In this document: positions 2,711 through 39,979 of the stretch, piece after piece
Position numbering within the stretch: the stretch's first letter is position 1
How the letters are laid out: the number at the start of each line of letters is the position of its first letter
From: an uncultured Planctomycetia bacterium
Lineage (GTDB): Bacteria > Omnitrophota > Gorgyraeia > Tantalellales > Tantalellaceae
DNA length: 64,000 nucleotides
Assembly (NCBI GenBank): GCA_964527765.1
Contig: CAZGQR010000003.1
Coordinates: forward strand, 75,366 to 139,365
Direction of reading: 5' to 3'
Notes under the pieces: model-generated
What the model was told of the DNA's origin: nothing
The model's database searches: none
Seen by the model: the letters and a program-made list of their open reading frames with translations, nothing else
Program-made: the position numbers and the translations under genes

Positions 2711-3778
2711 TCATGTAAACGGAACTTTTGCAAGGCGGTCCTCTTTTAAGATGTCCGAAACCGTTCCCTGCCACTCCGTGTCCCCGTAACGTATCTTCCG
2801 GAAATGCCAGTATTCGGCCCCCCAGAGCAAGATGGCGTCAACTCCAAGCTCCCGGAATTCCCTGAAAAGTTCCGCCATCATCTCGGGCGCACTCGTCAAT
2901 ACCGCCCCTTCCCCTTTATGGACCAGCTGGCCGGGCTCCCAGGGTTCCGCTTGAAGCTCCGCGATCCAGGCCTTTTTTCCCTTACTTTGCGCGAGCGCCA
3001 GGACTTTTGAAAAATATCTCTCCCGCTCCTTCCGGCTGGTGCGGAAATATAGATCCGCGTTCCAGAACTCTTTTCCTACGACCGGATAGACATTAAGCCC
3101 CAGGATATCGCCTATGGCCAGGCATTCCCTGACGGGGTCATGCCGGCTAAGAAGGCGGTTGAGAAAGCGAAGGATCCTGTTGGGATATGTTGCCGTCGTC
3201 AAAAGGATCGGGCGCTTTCTCCCGTCGAGGCTCCTTACAAGCTCCACTTCCTGCTCTAAAAAAGCCCTGCCTATAAACCAGTATTGCCTCCCGGTGCGGT
3301 TCAGCGGCTCGTTCTCAACCTGCCACCAATGTATGATGGAATCGTCCTTATAGCGATCTACGACTTTTCTTATGAATTGAAGCGTGCGTTTTCGCAGATA
3401 TTCGTCTCTTGAGACATCCGTGCCGAAGGAAAGAGAAGTTCTTTTCAAGACCCAGTCGGGGATAAAATATTCGGGCCACCGGGGAGCCTTCATGCCTACC
3501 GTCAGCGCAACAGGGACCTTCTTTTTCGCGGCTTCATGTATCTGCCAGTCAAGAGCGGAAAAGTCATAGACATTTTCTTCTTTCTCTATTTCGTCCCAGT
3601 AGGCTCCCAGGCGAATAAGGTCGAACCCGGCCTCGAGTATGGAAAGATAGGTTTTTTCCCGGTCCATCCCCAGGTATTCGCTCTGGCGCGGACTGTAGGT
3701 CGTTCCTATTTGCACCGGTCCCGCATACAGCGCCGAGCACTGGAAAACAAATAATACCGCGAGGGCAAGCGCCTTCAT
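2711..3778 (-). CDS. Secreted clan GH-A (TIM-barrel) glycoside hydrolase, GH42/GH5-like
   Basis: Signal peptide MKALALAVLFVFQCSALYAG. Acid/base motif WQVENEP and candidate nucleophile strand WIAELQAEPW. N-terminal Y-x-P...AGFDLIRLG..W..IE..E..YDF pattern is typical of clan A. Confidence 0.65.
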   Translation of the reverse strand: MKALALAVLFVFQCSALYAGPVQIGTTYSPRQSEYLGMDREKTYLSILEAGFDLIRLGAYWDEIEKEENVYDFSALDWQIHEAAKKKVPVALTVGMKAPRWPEYFIPDWVLKRTSLSFGTDVSRDEYLRKRTLQFIRKVVDRYKDDSIIHWWQVENEPLNRTGRQYWFIGRAFLEQEVELVRSLDGRKRPILLTTATYPNRILRFLNRLLSRHDPVRECLAIGDILGLNVYPVVGKEFWNADLYFRTSRKERERYFSKVLALAQSKGKKAWIAELQAEPWEPGQLVHKGEGAVLTSAPEMMAELFREFRELGVDAILLWGAEYWHFRKIRYGDTEWQGTVSDILKEDRLAKVPFT

Positions 3779-25341: not shown

Positions 25342-26964
25342 ATGGAAAAAAGGATGATCATAGCGATAGCGTTATCTTTGTTGGTCCTGCTGGGCTTTCA
25401 AGGGCTGGTCGCCAAAAGACACGCGCGTGTCCAGGTCGCGACCCCGGCTCCCTCCATGGGGGCGCCTGCCGGAACGGCTGAGAGGCCTCCCGCCGGCGAG
25501 ACCGCGATCCCGGCGGCAAAGTCCCGACAGGTTCCTGCCGGGGAAACCCTGGAAGAAAACATTACGGAGATCCGAACGGAGCTCTATGCGCTCGCCTTTT
25601 CCGATATGGGCGGGAGCCTGAGGAAACTGTCCTTGAACGAATATCGGAAACAGGACGAGGAAGAAGTTCTTTATGATGAGGAGAACCCGGCGGAAAGGCT
25701 CTTTGCCATGCGGAGCGAGCTTTCCCCGGGGTTAGAAAACAGGAAATTCGAATTGTTCAAAACAAGCGGGACGCTGGAATACAAGCTAACTGATCCGGGC
25801 TGGCTAGAGATAACGAAACGGTACACTTTTCACAAGTCTTTTGGTTATATCGACTTAGAGGTTTTCGCCAAAAACCTTTCGCCACGCAGAATCGTTTTTT
25901 CATATCAGATCGTAGGCCCTTCCGGGCTGGAAAGATCGGATCACATCGCCGGGAGAAGCTTTTTACAGGCGGATACGATGATAGACGGCAAGCTCTGGAA
26001 AATAAAATCTGTGAAGGGAGTGCAGGAGAGAACCGGGGACATATCCTGGACAGCGCTTAAGAACAGATACTTTGCGCTGATGCTCAAGCCATTCAACGCG
26101 CCCAGATCCGTGGCAATAACACAAACCGGGGACAAAAACTTTTTAATCGCCCTGAACAGCCGGACCTGCGAGCTGGAACCCGGGACGGAAACTGAAGACC
26201 GGTACCTGCTGTATGCGGGGCCTTTGGATGAGGAAAGAATCGCGGCAGCCGGCTATGATATGCAGAAGGTAGTGGATTACGGCTTTTTCGGGGGGGTCAG
26301 CAAGGCGCTGCTCTCTGTGTTACGCTTTTTCCACAAGTGGGCGCACAACTGGGGGGTGGCGATAATCCTTCTTACCATCCTGATCAATGCCGTCTTGTTC
26401 CCGCTCACGGTCAAGAGTTTTTCTTCGATGCAGCAAATGAAAACAATTCAGCCGCACATACAAAAACTGAAGGAGCTCCACAAAGATAACCCGCAGAAAC
26501 TCAACAAGGAGATGATGGAGCTATATAAGAAATACAACGTAAACCCTCTTGGCGGATGCCTGCCGCTGCTTTTGCAGATGCCCATATTTATAGCTCTTTA
26601 CCAGGGCCTCATGCGGTCCGTTGAGCTGAAAGGGGCGCAGTTTCTGTGGATAAAGGATCTGGCGAAGCCGGATGCGGTCCCCCTCCCGTTTTCTTTGCCG
26701 GTTATCGGCACGAATATAAACATTTTGCCGCTTCTTATGGTAGGCGTTATGATGTTACAGCAGAAGATCTCTCAGGGGGCTGCAGCCGGGACGATGACAA
26801 GCGAACAAGCCAGTCAGCAGAAAATGATGATGATGGCCATGCCTCTGCTTTTCGGCGTCCTTTTTTACAAGATGCCGGCGGGGTTGGTTCTTTACTGGCT
26901 GACGAACACGATCCTGATGACTGCGGAACAGAGTCTTATCAGCAAGCGCATAAGCAGAAATTAA
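25342..26964 (+). CDS. yidC: Membrane protein insertase YidC
   Basis: 540 aa. N-terminal TM, periplasmic domain, conserved C-terminal core (NWGVAIILLTILIN..., PLGGCLPLLLQMPIF, VLYWLTNTIL). Confidence 0.95.
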   Translation: MEKRMIIAIALSLLVLLGFQGLVAKRHARVQVATPAPSMGAPAGTAERPPAGETAIPAAKSRQVPAGETLEENITEIRTELYALAFSDMGGSLRKLSLNEYRKQDEEEVLYDEENPAERLFAMRSELSPGLENRKFELFKTSGTLEYKLTDPGWLEITKRYTFHKSFGYIDLEVFAKNLSPRRIVFSYQIVGPSGLERSDHIAGRSFLQADTMIDGKLWKIKSVKGVQERTGDISWTALKNRYFALMLKPFNAPRSVAITQTGDKNFLIALNSRTCELEPGTETEDRYLLYAGPLDEERIAAAGYDMQKVVDYGFFGGVSKALLSVLRFFHKWAHNWGVAIILLTILINAVLFPLTVKSFSSMQQMKTIQPHIQKLKELHKDNPQKLNKEMMELYKKYNVNPLGGCLPLLLQMPIFIALYQGLMRSVELKGAQFLWIKDLAKPDAVPLPFSLPVIGTNINILPLLMVGVMMLQQKISQGAAAGTMTSEQASQQKMMMMAMPLLFGVLFYKMPAGLVLYWLTNTILMTAEQSLISKRISRN

Positions 26965-26971
26965 GGCCGCC

Positions 26972-27172
26972 ATGAAAAAAGCAAAGCTCACTAAAACCAT
27001 AGAAGTAGAAGCTACCACCAGAGAAGAAGCTATTCGAAAAGCGCTCAAGACATTAGATGCCCACAGAGAAGATGTGACCATAAGGGTTATCCAGGAAGAA
27101 AGTAAAGGCCTTTTTGGCATGGAAGGCGCCAAACCCGCCAAAGTAAAAGTCACCCTCAAATCCCACAAATAA
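26972..27172 (+). CDS. Jag/KhpB N-terminal-domain-only protein (66 aa)
   Basis: KTIEVEATTREEAIRKALKTLDAHREDVTIRVIQEESKGLFG resembles the Jag_N domain, at the canonical position after yidC. No KH or R3H domains follow. Confidence 0.6.
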   Translation: MKKAKLTKTIEVEATTREEAIRKALKTLDAHREDVTIRVIQEESKGLFGMEGAKPAKVKVTLKSHK

Positions 27173-27215
27173 GCAGATTCCAGGCAACCATTCAAGCGCT
27201 CAAAGTGCGACGCAA

Positions 27216-27292
27216 GGACCGTTTGTCATGCTCCTACCAGGGCCCCTCCGCCCGGTGTGGATCCTCCCTGTACGGAGCATGACAAACGGTCC
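27216..27292. repeat. 77-nt long-stem inverted repeat (candidate structured RNA or protein-binding site)
   Basis: Perfect 19-bp arms GGACCGTTTGTCATGCTCC (27216-27234) / GGAGCATGACAAACGGTCC (27274-27292). After a 3x3 internal loop, an inner 5-bp CAGGG/CCCTG helix. No U-tract follows. Confidence 0.8.
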
Positions 27293-27309
27293 AACCGCTG
27301 GCTACCTTG

Positions 27310-27325
27310 GTTTCCACGTGGAAAC
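27310..27325. promoter_or_regulatory. parS-like 16-bp perfect palindrome GTTTCCACGTGGAAAC
   Basis: Perfect palindrome about 60 bp upstream of the parA -35. Related to the TGTTTCACGTGAAACA parS consensus but with an extra C/G around the CACGTG core. Confidence 0.5.
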
Positions 27326-27385
27326 TTTTACTTTAATGCACCATTATTCCGGACCGGAAAAACATCAACTATTTTGCCCCTGCCC

Positions 27386-27414
27386 TTGACTTTGTGAAAA
27401 TCATGTGCTATATT
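27386..27414 (+). promoter_or_regulatory. parAB promoter
   Basis: TTGACT-17 nt-TATATT, 83 nt upstream of the parA ATG. Confidence 0.6.
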
Positions 27415-27456
27415 TTTTGCAAATAAAAAGTTTCACCCGCACAGTTGATCAAAGAT

Positions 27457-27472
27457 ATTTCCACGTGGAAAC
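27457..27472. promoter_or_regulatory. Second parS-like palindrome aTTTCCACGTGGAAAc
   Basis: Same 14-bp core TTTCCACGTGGAAA, located in the parA 5' UTR. A canonical half-site GTTTCAC also occurs at 27430-27436. Confidence 0.5.
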
Positions 27473-27496
27473 CAAGAGGCGGACAGCGAAAACAGC

Positions 27497-28315
27497 ATGA
27501 AAAAAATAGCTTTCTGTAATCAAAAAGGCGGTGTGGCAAAAACGACGTCGGCCTTAAATATTGCTGCGTACCTCGCCTTGAATGGCAAAAAAACCCTTCT
27601 GATCGACCTGGACCCTCAGGCTAACGCCACCAGCGGACTCGGCATCAATAAAGACGAAATACGACACAGCATTTATAATGTTCTCCATGAACACATCGGG
27701 CTGGATGAGGCCATCAAACCTACCGAGATCGACCTCCTGTCAGTGCTCCCCTCAAACATAAATTTGACCGGGGCGGAAGTTGAATTGGTAAATGTTATGG
27801 GCAGAGAGTACCGTCTCAAAAAAGCCGTGCAGGAGGTGCAAGGGAGTTTCGAGTTTATAATCTTTGACTGCCCGCCCTCCTTGGGCCTTTTGACGATAAA
27901 CGGGCTGACCGCAGCGAATTCGGTGATCATCCCCATTCAGTGCGAATACTACGCGCTCGAGGGGTTGAGCCAATTGATCAAGACAGTAAATCTCGTCCGG
28001 GAGAATCTCAACGGAAAACTGGAGATAGAAGGTGTTTTAATGACGTTGGCGGACTACCGGACAAATTTGACGAAAGAAGTCATAGGTGAAGTCAAACAGT
28101 ATTTTGGCGACAAGGTATATAAGTCTATAATCCCGCGGACAATAAAGCTTACAGAAGCCCCGGGGTTTGGAAAACCGATAGCTCTTTATGCAAAAGATTC
28201 GGTTGGCGCAAAAAAATATGAGGAAGTGACCCGGGAGATCCTCAAGCTCCCACTAAAAACAGAACCCATTGAAAATGAAGGAGTTACAACAAATATGGAG
28301 GAAAGTTATGGATAA
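27497..28315 (+). CDS. parA: Chromosome partitioning ATPase ParA/Soj
   Basis: Deviant Walker A NQKGGVAKTT, DLDPQANAT, IIFDCPPSLG. 272 aa. Confidence 0.93.
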   Translation: MKKIAFCNQKGGVAKTTSALNIAAYLALNGKKTLLIDLDPQANATSGLGINKDEIRHSIYNVLHEHIGLDEAIKPTEIDLLSVLPSNINLTGAEVELVNVMGREYRLKKAVQEVQGSFEFIIFDCPPSLGLLTINGLTAANSVIIPIQCEYYALEGLSQLIKTVNLVRENLNGKLEIEGVLMTLADYRTNLTKEVIGEVKQYFGDKVYKSIIPRTIKLTEAPGFGKPIALYAKDSVGAKKYEEVTREILKLPLKTEPIENEGVTTNMEESYG

Positions 28316-29141
28316 AAGACTGGGGAAAGGATTAGACGCTCTTATTTCGGAAGATGTCAGTAAAGGCAAAGAAAAGGTTGAAAAAATCAGAACATCAGAG
28401 ATCGCGCCCAATCCCCTTCAACCAAGAAAAAGGTTCAGCGAAGAAAAAATGGACGAACTTATTTGTTCCATACGGGAAAAAGGAGTCATCCAGCCGGTGT
28501 TGCTCAGGCCCACAGGAGGAGGATACGAGCTTGTTGCGGGGGAACGGCGCTGGCGGGCCGCGCAAAAACTGCAGATCGAAGAAGTTCCCGCCATAATAAG
28601 AGACGACATAGACGACGCCAACAGCCTGGAGATCTCGCTTATTGAAAACATCCAGAGAGAAGAGCTGAACCCCATAGAAGAAGCGAATGCTTATCAGGAA
28701 TTGATCGGCCAGTTTGAATATACGCTGGACAAGGTCGGGCAGATGATGGGAAAGGACAAAACAACGGTTTCCAACAGCCTGCGGCTGTTGACCCTCCCGG
28801 AGGAGATACAGAACTATGTTGAAGAGGGGAAGATCTCTGCCGGCCACGCTAAGGCCATCCTGTCCATCACCAGCGAACAGAAGAGGAAAAAAATCGCCAA
28901 AACAATAATGCGAAAAGGAATTTCCGTCCGGGAAACGGAACAGCTGGTGCGTAAGCTTACGGAATCGAAACCGAAGCTGAAAAGAACGAAGGAACCCGAA
29001 ATAGCGCAGATCGAAGAGGCCTTGCAGCACAAACTTGGCACAAAAGTGACCGTTCACAAAGGGCAAAAAAGGGGGCGCATCGAGATCCAGTATTTTTCCA
29101 ATGAAGACCTTCAGCGTTTATTGCGGCTGATCCTTCAGTAG
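28308..29141 (+). CDS. parB: Chromosome partitioning protein ParB/Spo0J
   Basis: Start at ATG 28308 (MDKRLGKGLDALI), GGAGGA 6 nt upstream, 8-nt overlap with parA. Motifs QPR, GERRWRAA and an HTH region. Confidence 0.92.
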   Translation: MDKRLGKGLDALISEDVSKGKEKVEKIRTSEIAPNPLQPRKRFSEEKMDELICSIREKGVIQPVLLRPTGGGYELVAGERRWRAAQKLQIEEVPAIIRDDIDDANSLEISLIENIQREELNPIEEANAYQELIGQFEYTLDKVGQMMGKDKTTVSNSLRLLTLPEEIQNYVEEGKISAGHAKAILSITSEQKRKKIAKTIMRKGISVRETEQLVRKLTESKPKLKRTKEPEIAQIEEALQHKLGTKVTVHKGQKRGRIEIQYFSNEDLQRLLRLILQ

Positions 29142-29224: not shown

Positions 29225-29253
29225 TTGACATTATACCGCTAAAGTAGTATTAT
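29225..29253 (+). promoter_or_regulatory. pyr operon promoter
   Basis: TTGACA-17 nt-TATTAT. Confidence 0.65.
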
Positions 29254-29259
29254 CCTTTG

Positions 29260-29366
29260 AGAGAAAAGACCTTTTAAACTGGTCCGGAGAGACCTGAAAA
29301 GGAGCAAAGAATGAATAAATTAAAGTTGATAAGCCTGCTTGTCTCGTGACAGGGAGGCTTTTTTTG
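29260..29366 (+). promoter_or_regulatory. PyrR-binding transcription attenuator (leader RNA plus intrinsic terminator)
   Basis: GGUCCGGAGAGACC hairpin (29281-29294) resembles the PyrR box ARUCCAGAGAGGYU. Downstream is a 13-bp terminator stem (29331-29343 / 29348-29360, 1 mismatch) plus a T7 run, immediately upstream of pyrR. Confidence 0.7.
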
Positions 29367-29407
29367 TGTCTATGGACCGGGCCAGGGGAAAGAGACAGAG
29401 GGACGAG

Positions 29408-29947
29408 ATGGAACTTAAACTAAAGTCAAGGATACTGGATGCAGAGGGCATAAAAAGAACGCTACAGAGGATATCCCATGAAATACTGGAAAAGAACCAG
29501 GGCGGGGTCGAATTGGCCATAATCGGCATACGGTGCAGAGGAGCATATCTGGCCGAAAGAATAGCGGAGAACATAAAGACGATCGAAGGAAAAGAAACCC
29601 CGGTGGGAGCGCTGGACATCACCATGTACAGAGACGACCTTACGGAGATCGCGGAACAACCGGTGGTGCATTCGACGGAAATAGAGTTCGATATAACAGG
29701 CAAAAAGATCATTCTTGTGGATGATGTCCTGTTTTCCGGGCGGACAGTGAGATGCGCCCTGGATGAGCTTATCGATTTCGGCAGGCCGGCGAATATCCAG
29801 CTGGCGGTTCTTATAGACCGCGGGCACAGGGAATTGCCGATAAGGCCGGATTTTGTCGGGAAGAACATTCCGACGGCAAAGGAAGAAAGCGTCGAAGTGA
29901 GACTGAAAAATGTGGATGGAGTGGAGGAAGTGGTTGTCTTAGCATAA
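29408..29947 (+). CDS. pyrR: Bifunctional pyr mRNA-binding attenuation protein / uracil phosphoribosyltransferase PyrR
   Basis: Start at ATG 29408 (after AGAGGGA). [22 protein letters not shown]..., PRPP loop [12 protein letters not shown]. 179 aa, aligning end-to-end with my recollection of B. subtilis PyrR. Confidence 0.9.
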
Positions 29948-29963
29948 AACGGGGACTGAAGCC

Positions 29964-30962
29964 ATGAGCACGAAAAATACCGTAAAATGGACAAAGAAAC
30001 ATCTTCTGGGGATCGAAGACCTTTCCGCGGAAGAAATACAGCTTATACTTGATCATGCCGTGGGGTTCAAGGAAGTGCTGGAGAGGCCCATACCAAAAGT
30101 CCCCACCTTGAGAGGCAAGACCATCGTTAATATGTTCTGTGAGCCCTCCACAAGGACGCGCTCTTCGTTCGAGCTTGCGGCCAAGAGATTGAGCGCGGAC
30201 ACGCTGAATCTTGCGACGGCATCTTCCAGCTTCCTTAAAGGAGAAACCCTGAAAGATACGGCCAGGAACATCGAGGCGATGAAAGTGGACATGATCGTCA
30301 TGCGCCACGCGTGCCCCGGAGCGCCCCATTTTCTTTCCGGCTGTGTAGGGGCATCGGTGATCAACGCCGGGGACGGAGCCCACGAGCACCCCACCCAGGC
30401 CCTGCTTGACGTGTTCACGATCAGGGAAAAGCTGGGGAAGGTAAAGGGCCTTAAGGTCAGCATAATAGGGGATATTGCCCATTCGAGGGTCGCCCGGAGC
30501 AATATCTGGGCATTAACAAAATTGGGAGCAAAGGTTACGGTGTGCGGTCCCAAGACTTTGATCCCGGTCGAGATAGAAAAAATGGGGGTCAGAGCCACGT
30601 ATGACGTAAAAGAAGCGCTGAGTGGGGCGGATGTCCTGAACATGTTAAGGATACAGCTCGAAAGGCAGAAAAGGCCCCTTTTCCCCAGCATACGGGAGTA
30701 TGTAAGGGAGTTCGGCATAAACTCCCGCCTTTTAGAGAAACACGCTAAAAAAGAGGTGATGATAATGCATCCGGGGCCGATAAATAGAGGCGTTGAGCTC
30801 AGCCAGGATGTTGCGGACGGAGAGTATTCCGTTATACTCAACCAGGTAACGAACGGTGTTGCAGTAAGAATGGCGGTGTTATTTCTGCTGGGACACGTTA
30901 AAAAGGAACAAGTGGGGGAACAGCACAAGAAAATGATGAAAAACAAGCTGACAATCCCATAA
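29964..30962 (+). CDS. pyrB: Aspartate carbamoyltransferase catalytic subunit
   Basis: [15 protein letters not shown] and HPGP motifs. 332 aa, with a roughly 25-aa C-terminal extension. Confidence 0.94.
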
Positions 30963-30996: not shown

Positions 30997-32280
30997 ATGA
31001 AAATTTTGATAAAAAACGGAAGGATCATAGACCCGTCTCAAGGAATTGATAAGACAGGGGACATATTGGTCGAGAACGGGAAGATCGCACAGGCCGGCGG
31101 GTCCATAAAGGACAAAAACGCTAAAACGATTTTAGCCAAAGACAAGATCGTAGCTCCCGGTTTTGTGGACATGCATACCCATTTGAGGGAGCCCGGCCGG
31201 GAGGAAGTCGAGACGATAGAAACGGCCCTGAGCGCGGCGGTCAGCGGCGGTTTTACGACGGTCAGCGCCATGCCGAATACGGAACCCCCCTGCGACAGCC
31301 AGGCCCATGTGAAGTTTCTGCTTGAGAGGGCGGCTGAGGTCAAGCTGGCAAATATATTACCGGTAGGGACGATCACCAAGAACAGGGAAGGCCTCGAGAT
31401 GTCCGAGATGGGGGAATTAAGACAGGCAGGATGCCTTGCGGTTTCGGATGACGGGGATCCCGTGGCCGATCCGGGGCTTATGAGGATAGCCATGGAATAT
31501 GCGTCCATGGTCGATCTCCTCGTGATATCCCACTGCGAGGATAAGGCCCTTTCTGCCGAAGGCGTCATGCACGAGGGATACTGGTCAACGGTCCTTGGGC
31601 TGAAGCCCATACCGGCAGAGGCGGAGAGCACGATAGTCGAACGCGATATCCGTCTTGCGGGATTGGCCGGGGCCAGGCTGCACATCGCCCATGTCTCCAC
31701 GGCCGAGAGCGTGGAAATCATAAAAAACGCCAAGAAAGAAGGCGTGAAGGTAACCGCGGAAGTTACGCCGCATCATTTCACGCTCAGCGATGAAGCCCTT
31801 AAGACATTCGATACCAACATGAAGGTTTCGCCTCCGCTGCGGTCCGCAAAAGACGTACAGGCCTTAAAGGAGGGGATCAGAGACGGAACGATCGATGTCA
31901 TAGCCACGGATCATGCCCCGCACCTGGCGAACGAGAAAGAAAAGGAATTCGACTACGCGCCTTTCGGGATGATCGGCCTGGAAACGGCGCTCCCGCTGGC
32001 GGTCATGAAACTCGTTGATGAAGGATATCTGGATTGGCCCGGGCTTATCCGGAAACTGTCAACAAGGCCTTCGGAAATATTGAAATACAACAGGGGCTCG
32101 CTGGAAAAGGGAGCCCCTGCCGATATCGTGATAATCGACCCGGCCAAAGAATGGATTTATACCAGGGACAGGATCAGGTCGCGCTCGAGTAATTCTCCGT
32201 TCATCGGCTGGAGGATGAAGTCAGCGGTGACAGATGTCATTGTCGGGGGAAAGATCGTCCTGAAGACGGCGGGAATGTAG
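30997..32280 (+). CDS. pyrC: Dihydroorotase
   Basis: DMHTHLREPG metal site, ATDHAPH. 427 aa. Confidence 0.94.
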   Translation: MKILIKNGRIIDPSQGIDKTGDILVENGKIAQAGGSIKDKNAKTILAKDKIVAPGFVDMHTHLREPGREEVETIETALSAAVSGGFTTVSAMPNTEPPCDSQAHVKFLLERAAEVKLANILPVGTITKNREGLEMSEMGELRQAGCLAVSDDGDPVADPGLMRIAMEYASMVDLLVISHCEDKALSAEGVMHEGYWSTVLGLKPIPAEAESTIVERDIRLAGLAGARLHIAHVSTAESVEIIKNAKKEGVKVTAEVTPHHFTLSDEALKTFDTNMKVSPPLRSAKDVQALKEGIRDGTIDVIATDHAPHLANEKEKEFDYAPFGMIGLETALPLAVMKLVDEGYLDWPGLIRKLSTRPSEILKYNRGSLEKGAPADIVIIDPAKEWIYTRDRIRSRSSNSPFIGWRMKSAVTDVIVGGKIVLKTAGM

Positions 32281-32297
32281 TTTGGCTGCGGGCTGAC

Positions 32298-32765
32298 ATG
32301 CATAAAGAGAGATTCATAGTTACCAAGGAGCTCGGGAAGCTGGCAAAGTGGCTGCGGATACTGGGGTATGACAGCGTGTATTATGACGGGAAAGAGACCG
32401 CCGGGCTTGTGATACAGGCGCTGAGGGACAAGAGGGTCCTCATCACGCGCAGTTCCGCGCTGACAAAATATACGGGGGTGCAGGTAGTGGTCGTAAGATC
32501 TGACCATGTGGAAGAACAGCTGGAGCAGGTCACGCGCGAACTCGGCCTGCTGCTGGATGAAGAGCTCCTGTTCCAGCGGTGCGTCGAATGCAATGCCCCG
32601 CTGGAAGATATCAGCAAAAAAAAGGTCGAAGGAAAGGTGCCGGAATATGTATTTGAGACGCAGGAGCGCTTCAAGCGGTGCCCGCAGTGCGACAAAGTAT
32701 TCTGGAAAGGGACACATTGGGACATGGTGAAAAAATGGCTGGCAAAAAAGCGTCAAAAAAAGTAA
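32298..32765 (+). CDS. Mut7-C (DUF82) PIN-like/Zn-ribbon domain protein
   Basis: LGKLAKWLRILGYDS, QRCVECNAPL, RCPQCDKVFWKGTHW match the Mut7-C RNase-domain architecture. 155 aa. Confidence 0.7.
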   Translation: MHKERFIVTKELGKLAKWLRILGYDSVYYDGKETAGLVIQALRDKRVLITRSSALTKYTGVQVVVVRSDHVEEQLEQVTRELGLLLDEELLFQRCVECNAPLEDISKKKVEGKVPEYVFETQERFKRCPQCDKVFWKGTHWDMVKKWLAKKRQKK

Positions 32766-33547
32766 TAAAAGCGAAAATATGCCTCAATAAAAGCATCGCC
32801 CCGGATTATTTTGTGATGCGGATCGAATCGGGATGGCTGGCCCGAAACTCTTCTCCCGGCCAGTTCGTCACGGTCAAGATCCAGGAAAATGTGAAGGACC
32901 CCCTGCTCAGGATCCCTCTTGGCGTGCACGCGATCCGCGGAAAGGGGATCGACCTGCTGTACAAAGTCGTCGGGCCCGGGACCCGCTGCTTGAGCTCAAG
33001 GAACAAGGGCGAGAAGATCGATGTGCTGGGGCCGTTGGGAAACGGATTCGATCTTGCCCCGCTTGCACGCGGGCAAGACCCCAGGGTTGTCGTGGTCGCA
33101 GGCGGGCACGGCATCGCGCCGCTTTATGCTCTGGCCGAAGCCATTACGACAAAACGGAAAAAAGTAGATTTTTTCAACGGCGTATATACCAGAAAAAATA
33201 TCGTCTGCTCAAAAGAACTTAAGAAGCTCGGCGCAAGAGTTCGTATAGCGACAGAAGACGGGACGCAGGGGCACAAGGGATACGTGACGGATCTTCTGGA
33301 GAAGAAACTTAAAGCCGGCGCGTATGACCCGAAGAACACGGTCATATATGCCTGCGGCCCCAGGCCGATGCTTGCCGCTCTTGCAAAAATAGCCGAACGT
33401 TTCGGGGTGCCTGCCCAGGTCTCGCTTGATGCATACATGGCTTGCGGGATCGGCGCCTGCCTCGGCTGCTCTGTCATGACGACAGACGGGTATCGGCTCG
33501 TGTGCAAGGACGGCCCCGTGTTTGACGCCCGGGAGATCGTATGGTAA
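32735..33547 (+). CDS. pyrK: Dihydroorotate dehydrogenase B electron-transfer subunit
   Basis: Only in-frame ATG giving a PyrK-length product (270 aa). FAD/NAD-binding domain and C-terminal 2Fe-2S motif CGIGACLGC...C. Overlaps the Mut7-C gene by 31 nt. Confidence 0.88.
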   Translation: MAGKKASKKVIKAKICLNKSIAPDYFVMRIESGWLARNSSPGQFVTVKIQENVKDPLLRIPLGVHAIRGKGIDLLYKVVGPGTRCLSSRNKGEKIDVLGPLGNGFDLAPLARGQDPRVVVVAGGHGIAPLYALAEAITTKRKKVDFFNGVYTRKNIVCSKELKKLGARVRIATEDGTQGHKGYVTDLLEKKLKAGAYDPKNTVIYACGPRPMLAALAKIAERFGVPAQVSLDAYMACGIGACLGCSVMTTDGYRLVCKDGPVFDAREIVW

Positions 33548-33581: not shown

Positions 33582-34499
33582 ATGGACTTACAGGTAACAA
33601 TAGGGAAAATAAGGTTCAAGAACCCGATATGGGTGGCTTCGGGGACCTTTGGGTACGGAGAAGAGTTCCTGGATTTTGTTGACCTCGATAATATAGGCGC
33701 GATAGTCACAAAGACCCTGACGCCGGAGGCGCGGGAAGGCAACCCCCCGCCCAGGCTCGTGGAAACGCCCTCGGGGCTGCTTAACTCCATAGGGCTTGAG
33801 AATGAAGGCGTCGATCATTTTAAAGCGGAGCATTACCCATTCCTGAAAAAACTTAAGACAAGAATAATAGTAAGCATCGGGGGCCTGAGAAAAGAAGAAT
33901 TCGAAAGATGCGCGGAAAAACTTTCCGCGGAGGACCCTCCGGACGCTATTGAGATCAATCTTTCCTGTCCAAATGTCACCCATGCCGGGACGCGGCACGC
34001 CTATATATCCCAGGATCCCCGCGCAACGGAGAGAATAGTTTCAGCCTGCCGGAGGAAGGCCGGGTGCGCCGTCATAGCAAAACTTACGCCGGATGTAACG
34101 GATATCGCTGTCATAGCCGGGGCGGCAGAGGCCGGCGGCGCCGATGCCGTGTCCTTGATCAATACCTGCCCGGGGATAGCGGTGGATGCGGAAGAAATGA
34201 AGCCGGTACTCGGCAACATTGTCGGGGGCCTGAGCGGGCCGGCGATAAAGCCGATCGCCCTGAAAGCGGTCCGGGATGTGTACGGGAAGGTAAAGATCCC
34301 GGTGATAGGAATAGGCGGCGTGATGACGGGTATTGACGTTGCAGAGTTCATGTTGTGCGGTGCCTGTGCGGTACAGGTGGGAACGGCGAACCTTGCGGAC
34401 CCCGTCGCGTATGACAGGATCCTTGGAGAGTTCGAGACATATCTGAGACAAAAGAAAATAGAGAAAGCAAGCTCGCTGGTGGGCAGACTCAAAACTTAG
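33582..34499 (+). CDS. pyrD: Dihydroorotate dehydrogenase B catalytic subunit
   Basis: NPIWVASGTFGYG, LNSIGLEN, NLSCPN, IGIGGV. 305 aa. Confidence 0.94.
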   Translation: MDLQVTIGKIRFKNPIWVASGTFGYGEEFLDFVDLDNIGAIVTKTLTPEAREGNPPPRLVETPSGLLNSIGLENEGVDHFKAEHYPFLKKLKTRIIVSIGGLRKEEFERCAEKLSAEDPPDAIEINLSCPNVTHAGTRHAYISQDPRATERIVSACRRKAGCAVIAKLTPDVTDIAVIAGAAEAGGADAVSLINTCPGIAVDAEEMKPVLGNIVGGLSGPAIKPIALKAVRDVYGKVKIPVIGIGGVMTGIDVAEFMLCGACAVQVGTANLADPVAYDRILGEFETYLRQKKIEKASSLVGRLKT

Positions 34500-34526: not shown

Positions 34527-35228
34527 ATGGCGGCGAAAGAAAAACTAATAGTGGCATTGGACGCGGAAAGCCCGGGCCAGGCCCTCAAGCTTATAGACAT
34601 TCTCTCCGATGAGGTCGAGATCTTCAAGGTAGGGATCGCACCGTTTACCGGGTTTGGGCAGAAAGTGCTGGAAAAGCTGCATTCGGCCGGGAAGAAAGTT
34701 TTTCTGGACCTTAAGTTCCATGATATCCCAAATACGGTCGCCGGCGCGGCGCGGGCCGCCGCGGAGAAAGGCGTGTTCATGATGAATTTTCACTGTCTTG
34801 GAGGCCGCAGCATGCTGGAAGCGGCGGCGAAAGGCGCAAGGGAAGCGAAAAGCGGGGGAAAGCCGATCCTGCTGGGCGTCACGATACTCACCAGCATGAA
34901 CAATGAGGATATGCGCTCCATAGGGATCGCGGGAGATCTGCAGGAGAAAGTGATCGAACTCGCCCGGCTTGCCGCTGACAGCGGGCTTGACGGCGTGGTA
35001 GCTTCGGCGAAGGAAGCTCGCGCCATCAAGGAGAAAATAGGAAAAGATTTTCTGGTCGTGACCCCGGGGGTCCGCCCGGAGTGGGCCGCCCGGGGCGATC
35101 AAAAAAGGATACTGACCCCGAAACAGGCGATGTCCGAAGGGGCGGACTATATCGTTGTCGGCAGGCCGATAATCCAGGCGGAGGATCCGGCTGCCGCGGC
35201 GAAAAAAATAATAGAGGAAATGGGTTAA
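34527..35228 (+). CDS. pyrF: Orotidine 5'-phosphate decarboxylase
   Basis: LIVALD, DLKFHDIPNTV, VVGRPI. 233 aa. Confidence 0.93.
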   Translation: MAAKEKLIVALDAESPGQALKLIDILSDEVEIFKVGIAPFTGFGQKVLEKLHSAGKKVFLDLKFHDIPNTVAGAARAAAEKGVFMMNFHCLGGRSMLEAAAKGAREAKSGGKPILLGVTILTSMNNEDMRSIGIAGDLQEKVIELARLAADSGLDGVVASAKEARAIKEKIGKDFLVVTPGVRPEWAARGDQKRILTPKQAMSEGADYIVVGRPIIQAEDPAAAAKKIIEEMG

Positions 35229-35265: not shown

Positions 35266-35841
35266 ATGCAAGAGATGGAAATAATGGATATTTTTACCAA
35301 GACGGGAGCTTACCAGCAGGGGCACTTTTTGCTGTCCAGCGGGTTACATTCGGGAGCGTATCTGCAATGCGCGCTGGTCCTGCAGGACCCGATCCTTGCT
35401 GCGAGACTATGCGGCGTCCTGGCGGCAAAATTCCGGACGGATGAACCCGATATCGTGATCGGACCGGCCATGGGCGGCATAGTCCTGGCCTATGAACTGG
35501 CCAGGAACTTGAATGCCCGGGCGATCTTTGCGGAAAGGGACAAAGAGGGGAAGATGGCGCTTCGCAGAGGGTTCAGGATCGTGCCGGGAAGCAAAGTGCT
35601 GGTCGCTGAAGACGTGCTTACGACCGGAGGCTCGGTCAAAGAGGTAGTATCCCTTATAGAGAAAGACGGCATAGCCCCGATAGGAATAGCATGCCTGGTG
35701 GACAGGAGCGCGAAGAAAATCGATTTTGGTGGAATAAAGCACGAAAGCCTGATAAAATTGGATATTCCCACTTTCACCAAAGAAACATGCCCTCTTTGCC
35801 AGGAAGGCATACCTGTCGTGAAGCCGGGATCCAGGGGCTGA
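35266..35841 (+). CDS. pyrE: Orotate phosphoribosyltransferase
   Basis: GHFLLSSGLHS, PRPP motif VLVAEDVLTTGGS. 191 aa. The exact start is uncertain, as several N-terminal Met codons are available. Confidence 0.9.
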   Translation: MQEMEIMDIFTKTGAYQQGHFLLSSGLHSGAYLQCALVLQDPILAARLCGVLAAKFRTDEPDIVIGPAMGGIVLAYELARNLNARAIFAERDKEGKMALRRGFRIVPGSKVLVAEDVLTTGGSVKEVVSLIEKDGIAPIGIACLVDRSAKKIDFGGIKHESLIKLDIPTFTKETCPLCQEGIPVVKPGSRG

Positions 35842-35856
35842 CAAAAGGAGAAGATC

Positions 35857-36474
35857 ATGGAAATGGAACTGAAAAGCATAATCGAAAAAATAAAAGAGGA
35901 AGGCGTCGAGGAAGGGCAGAAAAAAGCCACCGATATAATCGGCCAGGCCGAAAATAAGGCCAAGGAAACCATAGAAGCGGCCGAAAAGGAAAAGGAAGAT
36001 ACAGTAAAGAATGCCGCAAAAGAGGCCGAGAGGCTGCGGAAGAACGGGGAAGAAGCCTTGCGCCAGGCCTCGCGCGATGTTTTGCTTGGGCTGAAAGAAG
36101 AGATCACCGCGCTTTTTGACAGCGTGATAAAAGAGGAGGTGGCGAAGCAGCTCTCGCCGGAGGTTCTTAAAGATATGATAATTACCCTTGTGCAGAAGTT
36201 CAAAAGGGACGAAGAACCTGATATAGAGATCCTGCTGAGCGACAAGGATAAAAAAGCCCTGGAAAAGGTCCTTTTGGCCAGGTTCAAGGAAAAGATGGCA
36301 AAAGGCGTGACCTTAAAGGCGTCTCCCAAAGTGGAAAAGGGATTCCTGATGGGAGGCAAAGGAAAAGGGGCTTATTACGACTTCACGGACGAAGCGATAG
36401 CAGAAGTGTTTAAAGCGTTTCTGAACCCCAAAATAGCGGATCTCTTAAATCCCGGAAAAAAAGATGTCAAATAA
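35857..36474 (+). CDS. atpE: V-type ATPase subunit E
   Basis: 205 aa. Lys/Glu-rich coiled-coil N-terminus and globular C-terminus. First gene of the V-ATPase cluster, 15 nt after pyrE. Confidence 0.8.
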   Translation: MEMELKSIIEKIKEEGVEEGQKKATDIIGQAENKAKETIEAAEKEKEDTVKNAAKEAERLRKNGEEALRQASRDVLLGLKEEITALFDSVIKEEVAKQLSPEVLKDMIITLVQKFKRDEEPDIEILLSDKDKKALEKVLLARFKEKMAKGVTLKASPKVEKGFLMGGKGKGAYYDFTDEAIAEVFKAFLNPKIADLLNPGKKDVK

Positions 36475-36967
36475 GTATTATTATCTTGGGGCGTCGCTCC
36501 CGTACGTCAGTTTCGGGGACGACCCTCCTTTCAGCAGGGAAGGGTTTATCGCGGAATGCGAAAAGTGGCTCTCGCCGGCCGACATGCAAGCGCTGCTCTC
36601 GGCGGACCTGCACTGCCGGGAGGAAAAATGCGAGGGCATTCCGCTCTTAAGAAGATGGAAGAGCTTTGACGCGGCCTTGAAGGCGGAGCTGGCGCGTATC
36701 AGGGCGGCGGCAAAAAAGGGCGAAGGATACAAGACCTCCGACATACTTAAGAACATCATGGGCAAGGAGACCCCTCTTCTCATGGAACGGGCTTTGGAAA
36801 AACTCAGGTGGATATTCATCGAAGAATGCAGCAAACAATATTTTTACGATATAAACGCGCTGGCCTCCTATTTTTTAAAGGTGCAGATCCTTGAAAGGCT
36901 GGCAACATTCAACAAAGACGAAGGCGAAAAATTCTTTTACAGTTTGTGCGAGGTAAAATATGAGTAA
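36464..36967 (+). CDS. DUF2764-type V-ATPase operon protein (putative subunit C equivalent)
   Basis: 167 aa, YYYLGASLPY... N-terminus. Sits between E and A, as in Bacteroidota/Chlamydiota V-ATPase operons. Overlaps both neighbours. Confidence 0.6.
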   Translation: MSNKYYYLGASLPYVSFGDDPPFSREGFIAECEKWLSPADMQALLSADLHCREEKCEGIPLLRRWKSFDAALKAELARIRAAAKKGEGYKTSDILKNIMGKETPLLMERALEKLRWIFIEECSKQYFYDINALASYFLKVQILERLATFNKDEGEKFFYSLCEVKYE

Positions 36968-38690
36968 ACAGTTGGGCAGAATAGCGGGCATTAACGGGAA
37001 CATGATAACGGTGAAATTCCCGAGCGATATCATCCAGAACGAGGTCGCGTACGTGCTGAGCCGGGGGAAAAGGCTGAAGGCTGAAGTCGTGAAGATCAGA
37101 GGCAATGACGCGTTCCTCCAGGTGTTCGAATACACGAAAGGCATAAAGGTCGGGGACGAAGTCGAATTTTCGGGAAAGATGCTTTCGGTGCAGCTGGGGC
37201 CGGGGCTCCTGACCCAGATCTATGACGGATTACAGAACCCGCTTCCGGAACTTGCCGAAAAATTCGGTTTTTTCCTGCCGGTGGGAGAAGAGCTTAACGC
37301 TCTTTCGTCCGAGAAGGAATGGAAATTTACCCCGATCGCCAAAAAGGGAGACAAGGTCACGAGAGGCTGTTTTCTCGGGGAAGTGCCGGAGGGGATCTTC
37401 AAGCATAAGATAATGGTGCCTTTCGATCTGCGGGAAGAGTATACGGTCGAGAAAATGGCGCCCCCGGGGGATTATACGATAGACAAGAAAATCGCGGAGC
37501 TGAAGGACTCGAAAGGAAACGCGATCGACGTGACCATGACATTCGACTGGCCGGTAAAAATACCCGTAAGGGCGTATGAAGATAAGATACAGCCCAAAGG
37601 TTCCCTTATAACGAAGGTCAGGATCATCGATACGCTCTTTCCGGTTGCCAGGGGCGGGACATACTGCATCCCCGGGCCCTTCGGTGCGGGCAAGACCGTG
37701 CTTCAGCAGCTGACCAGCCGTTATGCGGACGTCGACATCGTTATCATAGCGGCCTGCGGGGAAAGAGCCGGTGAAGTAGTCGAAACATTGAAAAATTTCC
37801 CCAAGCTTACGGATCCGCGGACGGGCAGATCCCTGATGGAAAGGACCGTAATTATCTGCAACACCTCCTCGATGCCGGTAGCCGCGAGAGAATCTTCCGT
37901 ATATACCGCCTCCGCGCTGGGGGAATATTACCGGCAGATGGGGCTCAACGTGCTGCTTCTGGCCGATTCGACTTCACGCTGGGCTCAGGCGATGAGGGAG
38001 ATCTCCGGAAGGCTTGAGGAGATCCCCGGCGAGGAAGCATATCCGGCTTATCTGGAATCCCGCATAGCCAGTTTTTATGAAAGGGCCGGCCTGGTGAAGC
38101 TTCATAACGGGGGGCTGGGAAGTCTTACCATAGGGGGCACGGTAAGCCCGGCGGGGGGCAATTTTGAAGAGCCGGTCACGCAGGGGACCCTTAAGGTCGT
38201 GGGGGCCTTTCACGGCCTGTCCCGGGAAAGGGCCGAAGCAAGAAAATATCCTTCGGTCGATCCTCTCGCGAGCTGGAGCAAGTACAAAAGCATCATACCG
38301 CAGGATCAGATCGATACGGCAAGGGAAGTGCTGTTCAAGGGCGAGCAGGTCAGCCAGATGATGAAAGTCGTGGGAGAGGAAGGGACGTCCCTGGAAGACT
38401 TCGTCGTCTATCTCAAGAGCGAATTCCTTGATAACGTGTATCTCCAGCAGAACGGTTTTGACGAGGTAGATGCCTCCACATCGGCCGACCGGCAGAAATA
38501 CGTTTTTGCGAAAGTGATCGGGGTGCTGAGACGCGAGTTTCCGTTTAAGGACAAGGGGCAGGCAAGGGATTTCTTCTACAATCTGCGGCACAAGTTCATA
38601 GACTGGAATTATAAGCAGTGGGGATCCGACGAGTTTAAGGATCAGGAAAAGGAAATAAACGATTTACTGGAAGGTGAGAAACAGCCATGA
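36960..38690 (+). CDS. atpA: V-type ATPase catalytic subunit A
   Basis: Walker [10 protein letters not shown], non-homologous region, LADSTSRWA. 576 aa. Confidence 0.95.
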
Positions 38691-39979
38691 GGAAAGTTTG
38701 TACCAGGATATTGAATATCGCGGGAAACGTCGTGACCGTCAAAACGGACGGCGTGGCGAACGAAGAACTTGCGGACATTTCGACTTCAAGAGGAACCTCG
38801 TTCGCCCAGGTAATACGCCTTGACGGGGATATGGTCCATCTTCAGGTATTCGCCGGCGCGGGAGGCGTGTCCACGGGGGACGAGGTGCGGTTCCTCGGAC
38901 ACCCGATGCAGGTGGGGTTTTCCGACAATATGCTGGGGAGGATATTCAACGGAAGCGGCGAACCCAGGGATAACGGCCCGGCGATCACGGAAAACATGAT
39001 AGAGATAGCCGGCCCTGCCGCGAATCCGGCGAAGAGAATAATCCCCAAGAGAATGGTCAGGACAAATGTCCCGATGATAGACCTGTTCAATTCGCTGGTC
39101 GAATCCCAGAAGCTCCCGATATTTTCCGTTTCCGGCGAACCCTATAACGAGCTTCTGGCCAGGATAGCCCTTCAGGCCGAGGTGGATATCATCATCCTGG
39201 GGGGCATCGGGCTAAAGTATGACCAGTACATGTACTTTAAGGATACCCTTGAAGAGGGCGGGGCCTTAAGCAGGACGATATTTTTCATACATACGGCGGC
39301 AGACCCGACGGTCGAGGGGCTCATGATCCCGGACCTCGCCCTGGCGGTGGCCGAGAAGTTCGCTCTCGGGGGGAAAAGAGTCCTGGCGCTTCTTACGGAT
39401 ATGACGAATTTCGCCGATGCCTTGAAAGAAATAGCCATAACAATGGAACAAGTTCCCTCTAACAGGGGATATCCGGGCGATCTTTACAGCCAGCTTGCCT
39501 CGAGGTACGAAAAAGCGGTCGATTTTGAAGGAGCCGGGTCCATAACGATCCTGGCTGTCACCACCATGCCGGGGGACGATATCACCCATCCCATTCCCGA
39601 CAATACCGGTTATATCACCGAAGGACAATTTTATCTCAGGAACGGCAGGATAGAACCGTTCGGTTCCCTGAGCAGGCTCAAGCAGCAGGTCAACAAGGAT
39701 ACGCGGGAAGACCACAGGGCCGTCATGGACAACATGATACAGCTCTATGCGAAATACGGCGAAACGGAAGAGAAAAGGTCCATGGGGTTCAGGATGAGCG
39801 ATTGGGATAAAAAACTCCTGAAGTACGGCGATCTTTTTGAGAGCCAGATGATGGACCTGAAGGTGAACGTTCCCCTGGAAGAGGCGCTTGACAACGGCTG
39901 GAGGATCCTGGCGGAATGCTTTAAGCCCGAAGAAACCAATTTCCGGACGGAACTTATAGAGAAGTTCTGGCCGAAATAA
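38687..39979 (+). CDS. atpB: V-type ATPase subunit B
   Basis: 430 aa. ...[14 protein letters not shown]..., [13 protein letters not shown] overlap with atpA. Confidence 0.94.

Follow-up and report, generated by a model that had tools for sequence, protein, structure and literature searches.

The 64,000-nucleotide stretch of DNA analysed here, called the window below, carries a gene for a Mut7-C protein inside a pyr operon (Table 1). To judge from the names of its close homologues, the organism belongs to Candidatus Omnitrophota. The encoded protein matches the Pfam model PF01927 over its full length (profile positions 2-144 of 146), with an E-value of 2.7e-44 and a score of 151.2 bits against a cut-off of 23.3, which confirms the family assignment made in an earlier note on this DNA. 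The neighbours of the gene were named from Pfam and NCBIfam profiles, and these flanks establish the order pyrR-B-C-[Mut7-C]-K-D-F-E given in that note. A reading of the sequence likewise returns the two junctions it had described, namely a gap of 17 nt between the pyrC stop codon, which ends at 32280, and the Mut7-C ATG at 32298, and an overlap of 31 nt between the pyrK ATG at 32735 and the Mut7-C stop codon at 32765. This ATG is the sole plausible start of pyrK, since the NF000798 alignment begins at its residue 9. The pyrK match to that model (206.4 bits) falls slightly short of the curated cut-off of 219, and the Pfam domains PF10418 (DHODB_Fe-S_bind) and PF00175 (NAD_binding_1) both score above theirs. 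For pyrR, the likely start is the ATG at 29408, on the 3' side of the candidate attenuator, rather than the listed TTG at 29339.

Table 1. Coordinates of the features discussed, in the window and in related loci (L numbers).
Feature	Sequence	Coordinates	Strand	Basis or remark
yidC, jag, parA, parB	window	25342-29141		directly upstream of the pyr promoter
Sigma-70-like promoter, TTGACA / 17-nt spacer / TATTAT	window	29225-29253	+	consensus scan, 11/12 matches
PyrR-binding leader with terminator hairpin and U-tract (candidate attenuator)	window	29266-29367	+	RF00515
Terminator-like hairpin in the pyr leader	window	29338-29353		followed by a T-run
pyrR	window	29408-29947	+	NF003549, E 3e-75, aligned from residue 28 of the longer ORF
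pyrB, aspartate carbamoyltransferase catalytic chain	window	29964-30962	+	NF002032, E 5.8e-121
pyrC, dihydroorotase	window	30997-32280	+	TIGR00857, E 1.3e-131, above its cut-off
Mut7-C ORF	window	32298-32765	+	155 aa, ATG start
Codons T9-K10-E11 of Mut7-C	window	32322-32330	+	Thr replaces canonical Asp; Glu11 class-specific
Codon S52 of Mut7-C	window	32451-32453	+	site of Asp in the canonical 'LTRD' motif
Predicted zinc ribbon of Mut7-C, C95, C98 ... C128, C131	window	32580-32690	+	conserved cysteines
pyrK, electron-transfer subunit of dihydroorotate dehydrogenase B	window	32735-33547	+	NF000798, E 5.1e-61
pyrD	window	33582-34499	+	NF005574, E 1e-109
pyrF	window	34527-35228	+	NF001273, E 5.4e-87
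pyrE	window	35266-35841	+	TIGR01367, E 1.2e-65
V/A-type ATPase genes (205-aa subunit, DUF2764, A and B subunits)	window	35857-39979		start 16 nt after pyrE
Endonuclease Q homologue	L011	4782-6044		example
Endonuclease Q homologue	L005	8453-9682		example
LolA-like / TP_0789-like lipoprotein-carrier gene	L005	6057-6794		between pyrC and Mut7-C
LolA-like / TP_0789-like lipoprotein-carrier gene	L168	4710-5468		between pyrC and Mut7-C
tRNA-Arg(CCG)	L009	9707-9778		
tRNA-Arg(CCG)	L083	9473-9544		
tRNA-Arg(CCG)	L092	3132-3204		
tRNA-Arg(CCG)	L096	4282-4355		
tRNA-Arg(CCG)	L109	9677-9749		
tRNA-Arg(CCG)	L089	7472-7543		
tRNA-Arg(CCG)	L011	6898-6971		
tRNA-Arg(CCG)	L091	7671-7742		
Fpg (formamidopyrimidine-DNA glycosylase)	L011	7910-8716		a few genes 3' of Mut7-C and endonuclease Q
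Fpg (formamidopyrimidine-DNA glycosylase)	L170	12507-13236		a few genes 3' of Mut7-C and endonuclease Q
Small GIY-YIG nuclease-domain gene	L169 (Candidatus Gorgyraea atricola)	3473-3727		between pyrR and pyrB

The best promoter-like site of the region, a pattern match only, lies upstream of the pyr leader. The leader itself aligns to RF00515 over the full length of the model, with a score of 48.4 bits (E 2.3e-4) that lies below the gathering score of 54, and equivalent PyrR sites stand 5' of pyrR in L005 (56.2 bits, above the gathering score), L109 (53.1) and L006 (44.4). A further PyrR site in front of Mut7-C or of endonuclease Q was detected neither in the operon of the window nor in any of 13 related loci, and no terminator-like site was detected on the + strand between pyrC and pyrK. 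Co-transcription of Mut7-C with the pyr genes, as proposed in the earlier note, is plausible given the tight or overlapping spacing on both sides, the lack of an internal terminator and the single putative attenuator in the leader, and from this arrangement we infer that the gene would also be under PyrR control. The GC content of the Mut7-C gene (0.52; 0.67 at third codon positions, GC3) is the same as that of the flanking genes, and the gene therefore looks resident rather than recently inserted. An antisense ORF of 199 aa (32157-32756, - strand) spans nearly the whole gene; it was set aside as a side effect of the coding strand. A tblastn search for carA and carB, for which the earlier note had suggested a look at the genome, found neither in the 64-kb window.

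The pyr operon is wedged between yidC-jag-parA-parB and the genes of a V/A-type ATPase, and no terminator-like site was found between pyrE and the latter; the pyrE-ATPase junction is conserved in L161, L162, L164-L167 and L169. In L162, rnpA and yidD precede yidC-jag-parA-parB. The cluster rnpA-yidD-yidC-jag-parA-parB is a classical origin-proximal one, and the pyr operon may therefore lie near the replication origin. Unrelated functions are packed co-directionally in this genome, so that membership of an operon is weak evidence of function.

The window protein consists of a reduced PIN-like alpha/beta domain and a zinc ribbon. Its AlphaFold2 model (pLDDT 90) has a fold like that of the solved MUT7-C domain, and the next-best structural neighbours of the alpha/beta domain are ligand-binding flavodoxin-like domains; a sequence search of the PDB with the window protein gave nothing relevant, and NCBIfam holds no model for it. 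The four cysteines of the predicted zinc ribbon are invariant in a 40-sequence alignment and show little or no variation among the 277 sequences that are assigned to classes below. The protein carries a net charge of +8 and retains the basic and aromatic residues that are conserved in the family (W18-L-R20, R46, T50-R51, K107, K/R133, W136 and H140). Common to both classes are the four cysteines, the motif LGxLAxWLRxxGYD, R46, T50-R51, Q74, N99 and W136-x-G-x-H140.

To compare the acidic positions of the family, 281 homologues from a protein search and from 160 fetched loci were aligned and numbered by the residues of the window protein. The residue that follows strand 1 divides them into a canonical class with Asp9 (142 sequences) and a variant class with Thr, Ser or Ala at this position (135 sequences), and every named member of the variant class is a Candidatus Omnitrophota. 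Asp occupies position 9 throughout the canonical class (142/142), and the 135 variants have Thr there in 123 cases, Ser in 10 and Ala in 2 (Thr in the window protein), whereas position 11 is Asn or Met in the canonical class and Glu in 135/135 variants, the window protein included. Asp34, present in 117/142 canonical sequences, is replaced by variable residues (K/V/I/T/E/R) among the variants and by Thr in the window; Asp52, present in 123/142, gives way to Asn in 50 and Ser in 46 variants and is kept in 19 of the 135 (Ser in the window); and position 69 is Asp or Glu in 118/142 canonical and 130/135 variant sequences (Asp in the window). Counted over positions 9, 34, 52 and 69, canonical sequences have four acidic residues in 92/142 cases and three in 35/142 (three to four in 127/142), whereas all 135 variants have two or fewer and 95 of them exactly one.

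The earlier note had pointed to the motifs FIVT and LITRSS as substitutions at two acidic positions. Both motifs are present, as F-I-V-T9 and L-I-T-R-S52-S, and the substitutions are real, although the note understated them: the alignment shows catalytic residues that are not intact, with three of the four acidic positions gone (D9 to T, D34 to T and D52 to S) and D69 alone remaining, and the loss is class-wide rather than a one-off. In alpha/beta nucleases the metal site lies at the C-terminal edge of the strands. Positions 9, 34, 52 and 69 directly follow strands 5-8, 25-28, 47-50 and 63-65 of the model, and to judge from this secondary structure they would cluster at the metal-site edge. 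The Asp after strand 1 is the sole active-site residue reported to be conserved across PF01927 (PMC5499597). The window protein has Thr9 in its place and thus lacks the single conserved catalytic feature of the family, so that the name RNase is not warranted for it; it also falls short of the three to four clustered acidic residues of PIN-like nucleases.

When 1.84 billion cluster representatives were searched exhaustively, 4,454 relatives were found at E <= 1e-3. Among the best 150 of these together with the window protein, position 9 is Thr or Ser in 21 and Asp in 117; the variant class is a small minority of the family. It did not come out as a single clade in two neighbour-joining trees of the 151 cluster representatives, in which the best split without other members contained 6-7 of the 21; it is the shared T9/E11 signature, the phylum and the synteny that point to a single origin of the class.

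The genomic address of the two classes was compared in loci found through Mut7-C, 80 from genomes and 80 from metagenomes. All 30 variant-class loci with upstream sequence, three of which were found in later sampling, lie in a pyr operon, and the gene directly follows pyrC in 28 of them. In the remaining two, L005 and L168, a LolA-like gene intervenes between pyrC and Mut7-C; in L005 carA also stands between these genes, and carA and carB are split by the pair of Mut7-C and endonuclease Q. The link to pyr genes reaches lineages whose PyrC is just 46-51% identical to that of the window, whereas pyr genes adjoin none of the 129 canonical loci, which belong to Chloroflexota, Syntrophales, Elusimicrobiota and other groups. 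Two layouts occur in the variant class. In the window, L001, L081 and L165, the genes after Mut7-C are pyrK-D-F-E; in 29 other loci Mut7-C is followed by a homologue of endonuclease Q of about 410 aa, often with overlapping stop and start codons, and usually then by tRNA-Arg(CCG), other genes, carA, carB and pyrK. The recurrent neighbours of the canonical Asp9 homologues are an MBL-fold hydrolase, CorA, a Vut_1 transporter, YjeF and pantothenate kinase; they reflect Dehalococcoidia-type local synteny and offered no hint of a function.

These surveys were ascertained through Mut7-C itself, and relatives were hence resampled through PyrC and through endonuclease Q. The PyrC sample comprised six long contigs, whose PyrC shares 65-78% identity with that of the window. 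In five of them (L161-L164 and L166) pyrC is followed directly by pyrK, with no Mut7-C gene and no pseudogene remnant of one; L165 is the sole carrier. L164 (PyrC 78%) and L162 (68%) keep the order of the window from yidC to the ATPase genes, minus Mut7-C alone. In a neighbour-joining tree of PyrC, which was built without support values, loci with and without Mut7-C are interleaved inside the clade of the window, and this suggests repeated loss of the gene within that clade. The survey of pyr operons that the earlier note had proposed thus gave a divided answer: where the variant class occurs, it occurs in pyr operons (30/30), and it is absent from 5/6 of the relatives sampled through PyrC. 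The description of the protein as "hard-wired into pyrimidine biosynthesis" was too strong, since these close relatives have neither the gene nor a remnant, and for the same reason Mut7-C is dispensable for the pyr operon and is not a step of the pathway.

Other unrelated genes occupy the slot after pyrC in Omnitrophota, namely those for endonuclease Q, a LolA-like protein and a flavodoxin-like protein, and genes of the SLOG, YjbQ and Fpg families appear further downstream in other loci. The Fpg genes of L011 and L170 add another DNA-repair gene to the co-directional cluster that contains Mut7-C and endonuclease Q, and the GIY-YIG gene of L169 is another nuclease-fold gene within an Omnitrophota pyr operon.

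Endonuclease Q is a dU/dI-directed DNA endonuclease of PHP fold. The Omnitrophota homologue matches PfuEndoQ over its full length (E 3.6e-49) and bears the NCBI label 'endonuclease Q family', and its gene lies directly downstream of Mut7-C in 29 loci. Pyr operons with this gene were seen in L003-L011, L015-L017, L082-L092, L094, L096, L109, L113 and L167-L170. The four loci sampled through endonuclease Q divide evenly, two with the order pyrC-Mut7-C-EndoQ and two (L167 and L169) with pyrC-EndoQ-pyrK and no Mut7-C. All four combinations of presence and absence of the two genes therefore occur at the pyrC-pyrK junction, which means that both are optional there and that neither needs the other alongside. 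The 64-kb window itself has no endonuclease Q gene, which makes the link of its lineage to this enzyme an indirect one. Apparently, a uracil/hypoxanthine-directed repair nuclease is placed under a PyrR attenuator in Omnitrophota, and the titles and abstracts of the 15 endonuclease Q papers listed make no mention of pyr operons or of a PyrR-attenuated EndoQ. A tRNA-Arg(CCG) gene on the same strand lies downstream of EndoQ in eight scanned loci (Table 1); in some (L009, L092) it is the very next gene, in the others it stands at a distance of 0.5-0.9 kb, and L006 and L010 have an unnamed tRNA gene in the equivalent place. This tRNA gene probably marks the end of a pyrR-B-C-Mut7-C-EndoQ unit, before carAB.

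Our best explanation, which we put forward tentatively and at somewhat under an even chance, is that the Mut7-C protein of the window is an accessory, non-catalytic nucleic-acid binder co-expressed with the pyr genes. It would no longer perform PIN-type metal-dependent cleavage and would bind nucleic acid, most likely single-stranded RNA. Its gene would be the fourth cistron of one transcript that starts from the promoter-like site and passes the candidate PyrR attenuator upstream of pyrR, and low UMP/UTP would lead to PyrR read-through and to a higher level of the protein. Because most other Omnitrophota pair Mut7-C with the dU/dI endonuclease Q, the protein would serve the handling of nucleic acids in connection with pyrimidine supply and would take no part in the catalysis or allostery of pyr enzymes; the gene is an optional passenger of the pyr operon, not a missing component of pyrimidine biosynthesis. 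MUT7-C domains have been described as binding RNA without a nuclease activity of their own, the binding by isolated animal domains being weak, and RNA binding was proposed as the ancestral MUT7-C function (Busetto et al. 2024, PMC11347159). The suggestion of the earlier note, an RNA binder rather than an RNase, is consistent with this work and with our sequence data.

The rival explanations and this one overlap in part. The protein may still be a nuclease with a relocated active site, in which Glu11, D/E69 and the hydroxyl of Thr9 would bind the metal and the substrate would be RNA, for example the long pyr transcript during its processing, or else DNA, in company with endonuclease Q. We consider this unlikely: the presence of Glu11 in 135/135 variants and never in canonical sequences is a pattern typical of functional replacement, D/E69 is kept in 130/135 and D52 still stands in 19/135, but the window protein has lost three of the four acidic positions, position 34 is free to vary (K/V/I/T/E/R), position 52 is mostly Asn or Ser, and the MUT7-C domains that were tested did not act as nucleases by themselves (PMC11347159). 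A doubtful but serious contender is a hitch-hiker with no pyrimidine link, which entered once at the pyrC-pyrK junction in an Omnitrophota ancestor and was then inherited or lost, its position reflecting compact, co-directional gene packing. The absence of Mut7-C from 5/6 PyrC-sampled and 2/4 EndoQ-sampled relatives fits such a history, as do the interleaving of carriers and non-carriers in the PyrC tree, the LolA-like and flavodoxin-like genes at the same junction with SLOG, YjbQ-family and Fpg genes further downstream, and the ATPase genes only 16 nt after pyrE. A pure passenger would, however, be expected to relocate at least occasionally, whereas 30/30 loci have the gene within the pyr operon, across lineages with PyrC 46-51% identical to that of the window, and its neighbours lie very close to it or overlap with it.

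Two further readings assign the protein a partner. As an accessory factor of endonuclease Q in the repair of uracil and hypoxanthine in DNA, it would be found in the window as a leftover after EndoQ had moved or been lost. We know of no such partnership described for archaeal endonuclease Q. The succession of the two genes in 29 loci, often with overlapping stop and start codons, the full-length match of the homologue to PfuEndoQ (E 3.6e-49) and the frequent loss of Mut7-C in the four-locus clade without adjacent EndoQ would agree with it, yet EndoQ follows pyrC without Mut7-C in L167 and L169, Mut7-C occurs without adjacent EndoQ in the window, L001, L081 and L165, and neither gene needs the other next to it, so that we rate this quite unlikely. 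Least credible of all, and in our view very improbable, is a subunit of aspartate carbamoyltransferase or dihydroorotase with a regulatory or scaffolding role, which would be analogous, not homologous, to PyrI, a protein made of a nucleotide-binding domain and a four-cysteine zinc domain. The position after pyrB-pyrC (directly after pyrC in 28/30 loci) and the combination of a zinc-binding module with a small alpha/beta domain whose structural neighbours are flavodoxin-like and ligand-binding recall PyrI, but the protein matches PyrI neither in sequence nor in fold, close relatives with similar pyrB and pyrC (PyrC up to 78% identical) do without Mut7-C, and the residues shared with canonical Mut7-C are basic and aromatic, as expected for nucleic-acid binding. 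Two other candidates were discarded: the toxin of a toxin-antitoxin pair, as proposed for the related groups COG4634 and PIN_10, for the gene adjoins pyrC and pyrK rather than a small antitoxin gene and the active site is degenerate, and a component of anti-phage defence, for no PADLOC match was found at E <= 0.01.

The non-catalytic nucleic-acid binder that we favour can be extended to a broader and improbable idea, in which the slot after pyrC would be a PyrR-controlled 'nucleic-acid care' module: read-through at low UMP/UTP would supply EndoQ and a catalytically dead Mut7-C along with the biosynthetic enzymes, and Mut7-C would then attach to single strands that are damaged or rich in uracil, or pass them on to a nuclease. 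If true, this would couple the sensing of the nucleotide pool directly to the repair or turnover of nucleic acids, with a pseudo-nuclease as adaptor.

A full-text search of the accessible literature found no paper that links Mut7-C, COG1656 or PF01927 to pyr operons, in agreement with the statement of the earlier note that the association had not been described; what has to be tempered is its original claim, as Mut7-C is optional in the pyr operon. Judged by its sequences and their neighbourhoods, the variant class is a phylum-restricted, putative pseudo-nuclease subclass with a fixed genomic address. It is sharply delimited (T/S9, E11, and the loss of D34 and D52), offers many sequences for comparison and provides a natural 'dead' version to set against canonical members. 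PyrR control gives a concrete regulatory hypothesis for Mut7-C, and the EndoQ homologue within pyr operons is a second lead, one that would connect the supply of pyrimidines with the way uracil in DNA is dealt with.

To our knowledge, a function has yet to be assigned to any of the stand-alone Mut7-C proteins of prokaryotes. With the stand-alone prokaryotic members (PF01927/COG1656; PIN-like group 5, Matelska et al. 2017) the window protein shares LGxLAxWLRxxGYD, R46, the T-R pair, Q74, N99 and W-x-G-x-H; it differs from them in lacking Asp9, Asp34 and Asp52 and in having the class-specific, invariant Glu11. The canonical members sampled occur in lineage-specific contexts without pyr genes, whereas the window class is fixed in pyr operons. 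In C. elegans MUT-7 and human EXD3 (PDB 8Q66; Busetto et al. 2024) the MUT7-C domain is joined to a 3'-5' exonuclease and has insertions in its zinc finger, while the window protein is minimal, stand-alone and without a partner domain. Endonuclease Q (PfuEndoQ, PDB 5ZB8; TIGR00375/PF27218) is an unrelated PHP-fold enzyme, and its Omnitrophota homologue shares the post-pyrC slot with Mut7-C in most relatives. Compared with the Bacillus-type operon (pyrR-P-B-C-AA-AB-K-D-F-E), the window operon likewise has pyrR first, a putative PyrR leader with a terminator, and the genes B-C and K-D-F-E in the same order, but neither it nor the rest of the window has pyrP or carAB (pyrAA/AB), a single candidate attenuator was detected, and the variant Mut7-C gene occupies the position of carAB.
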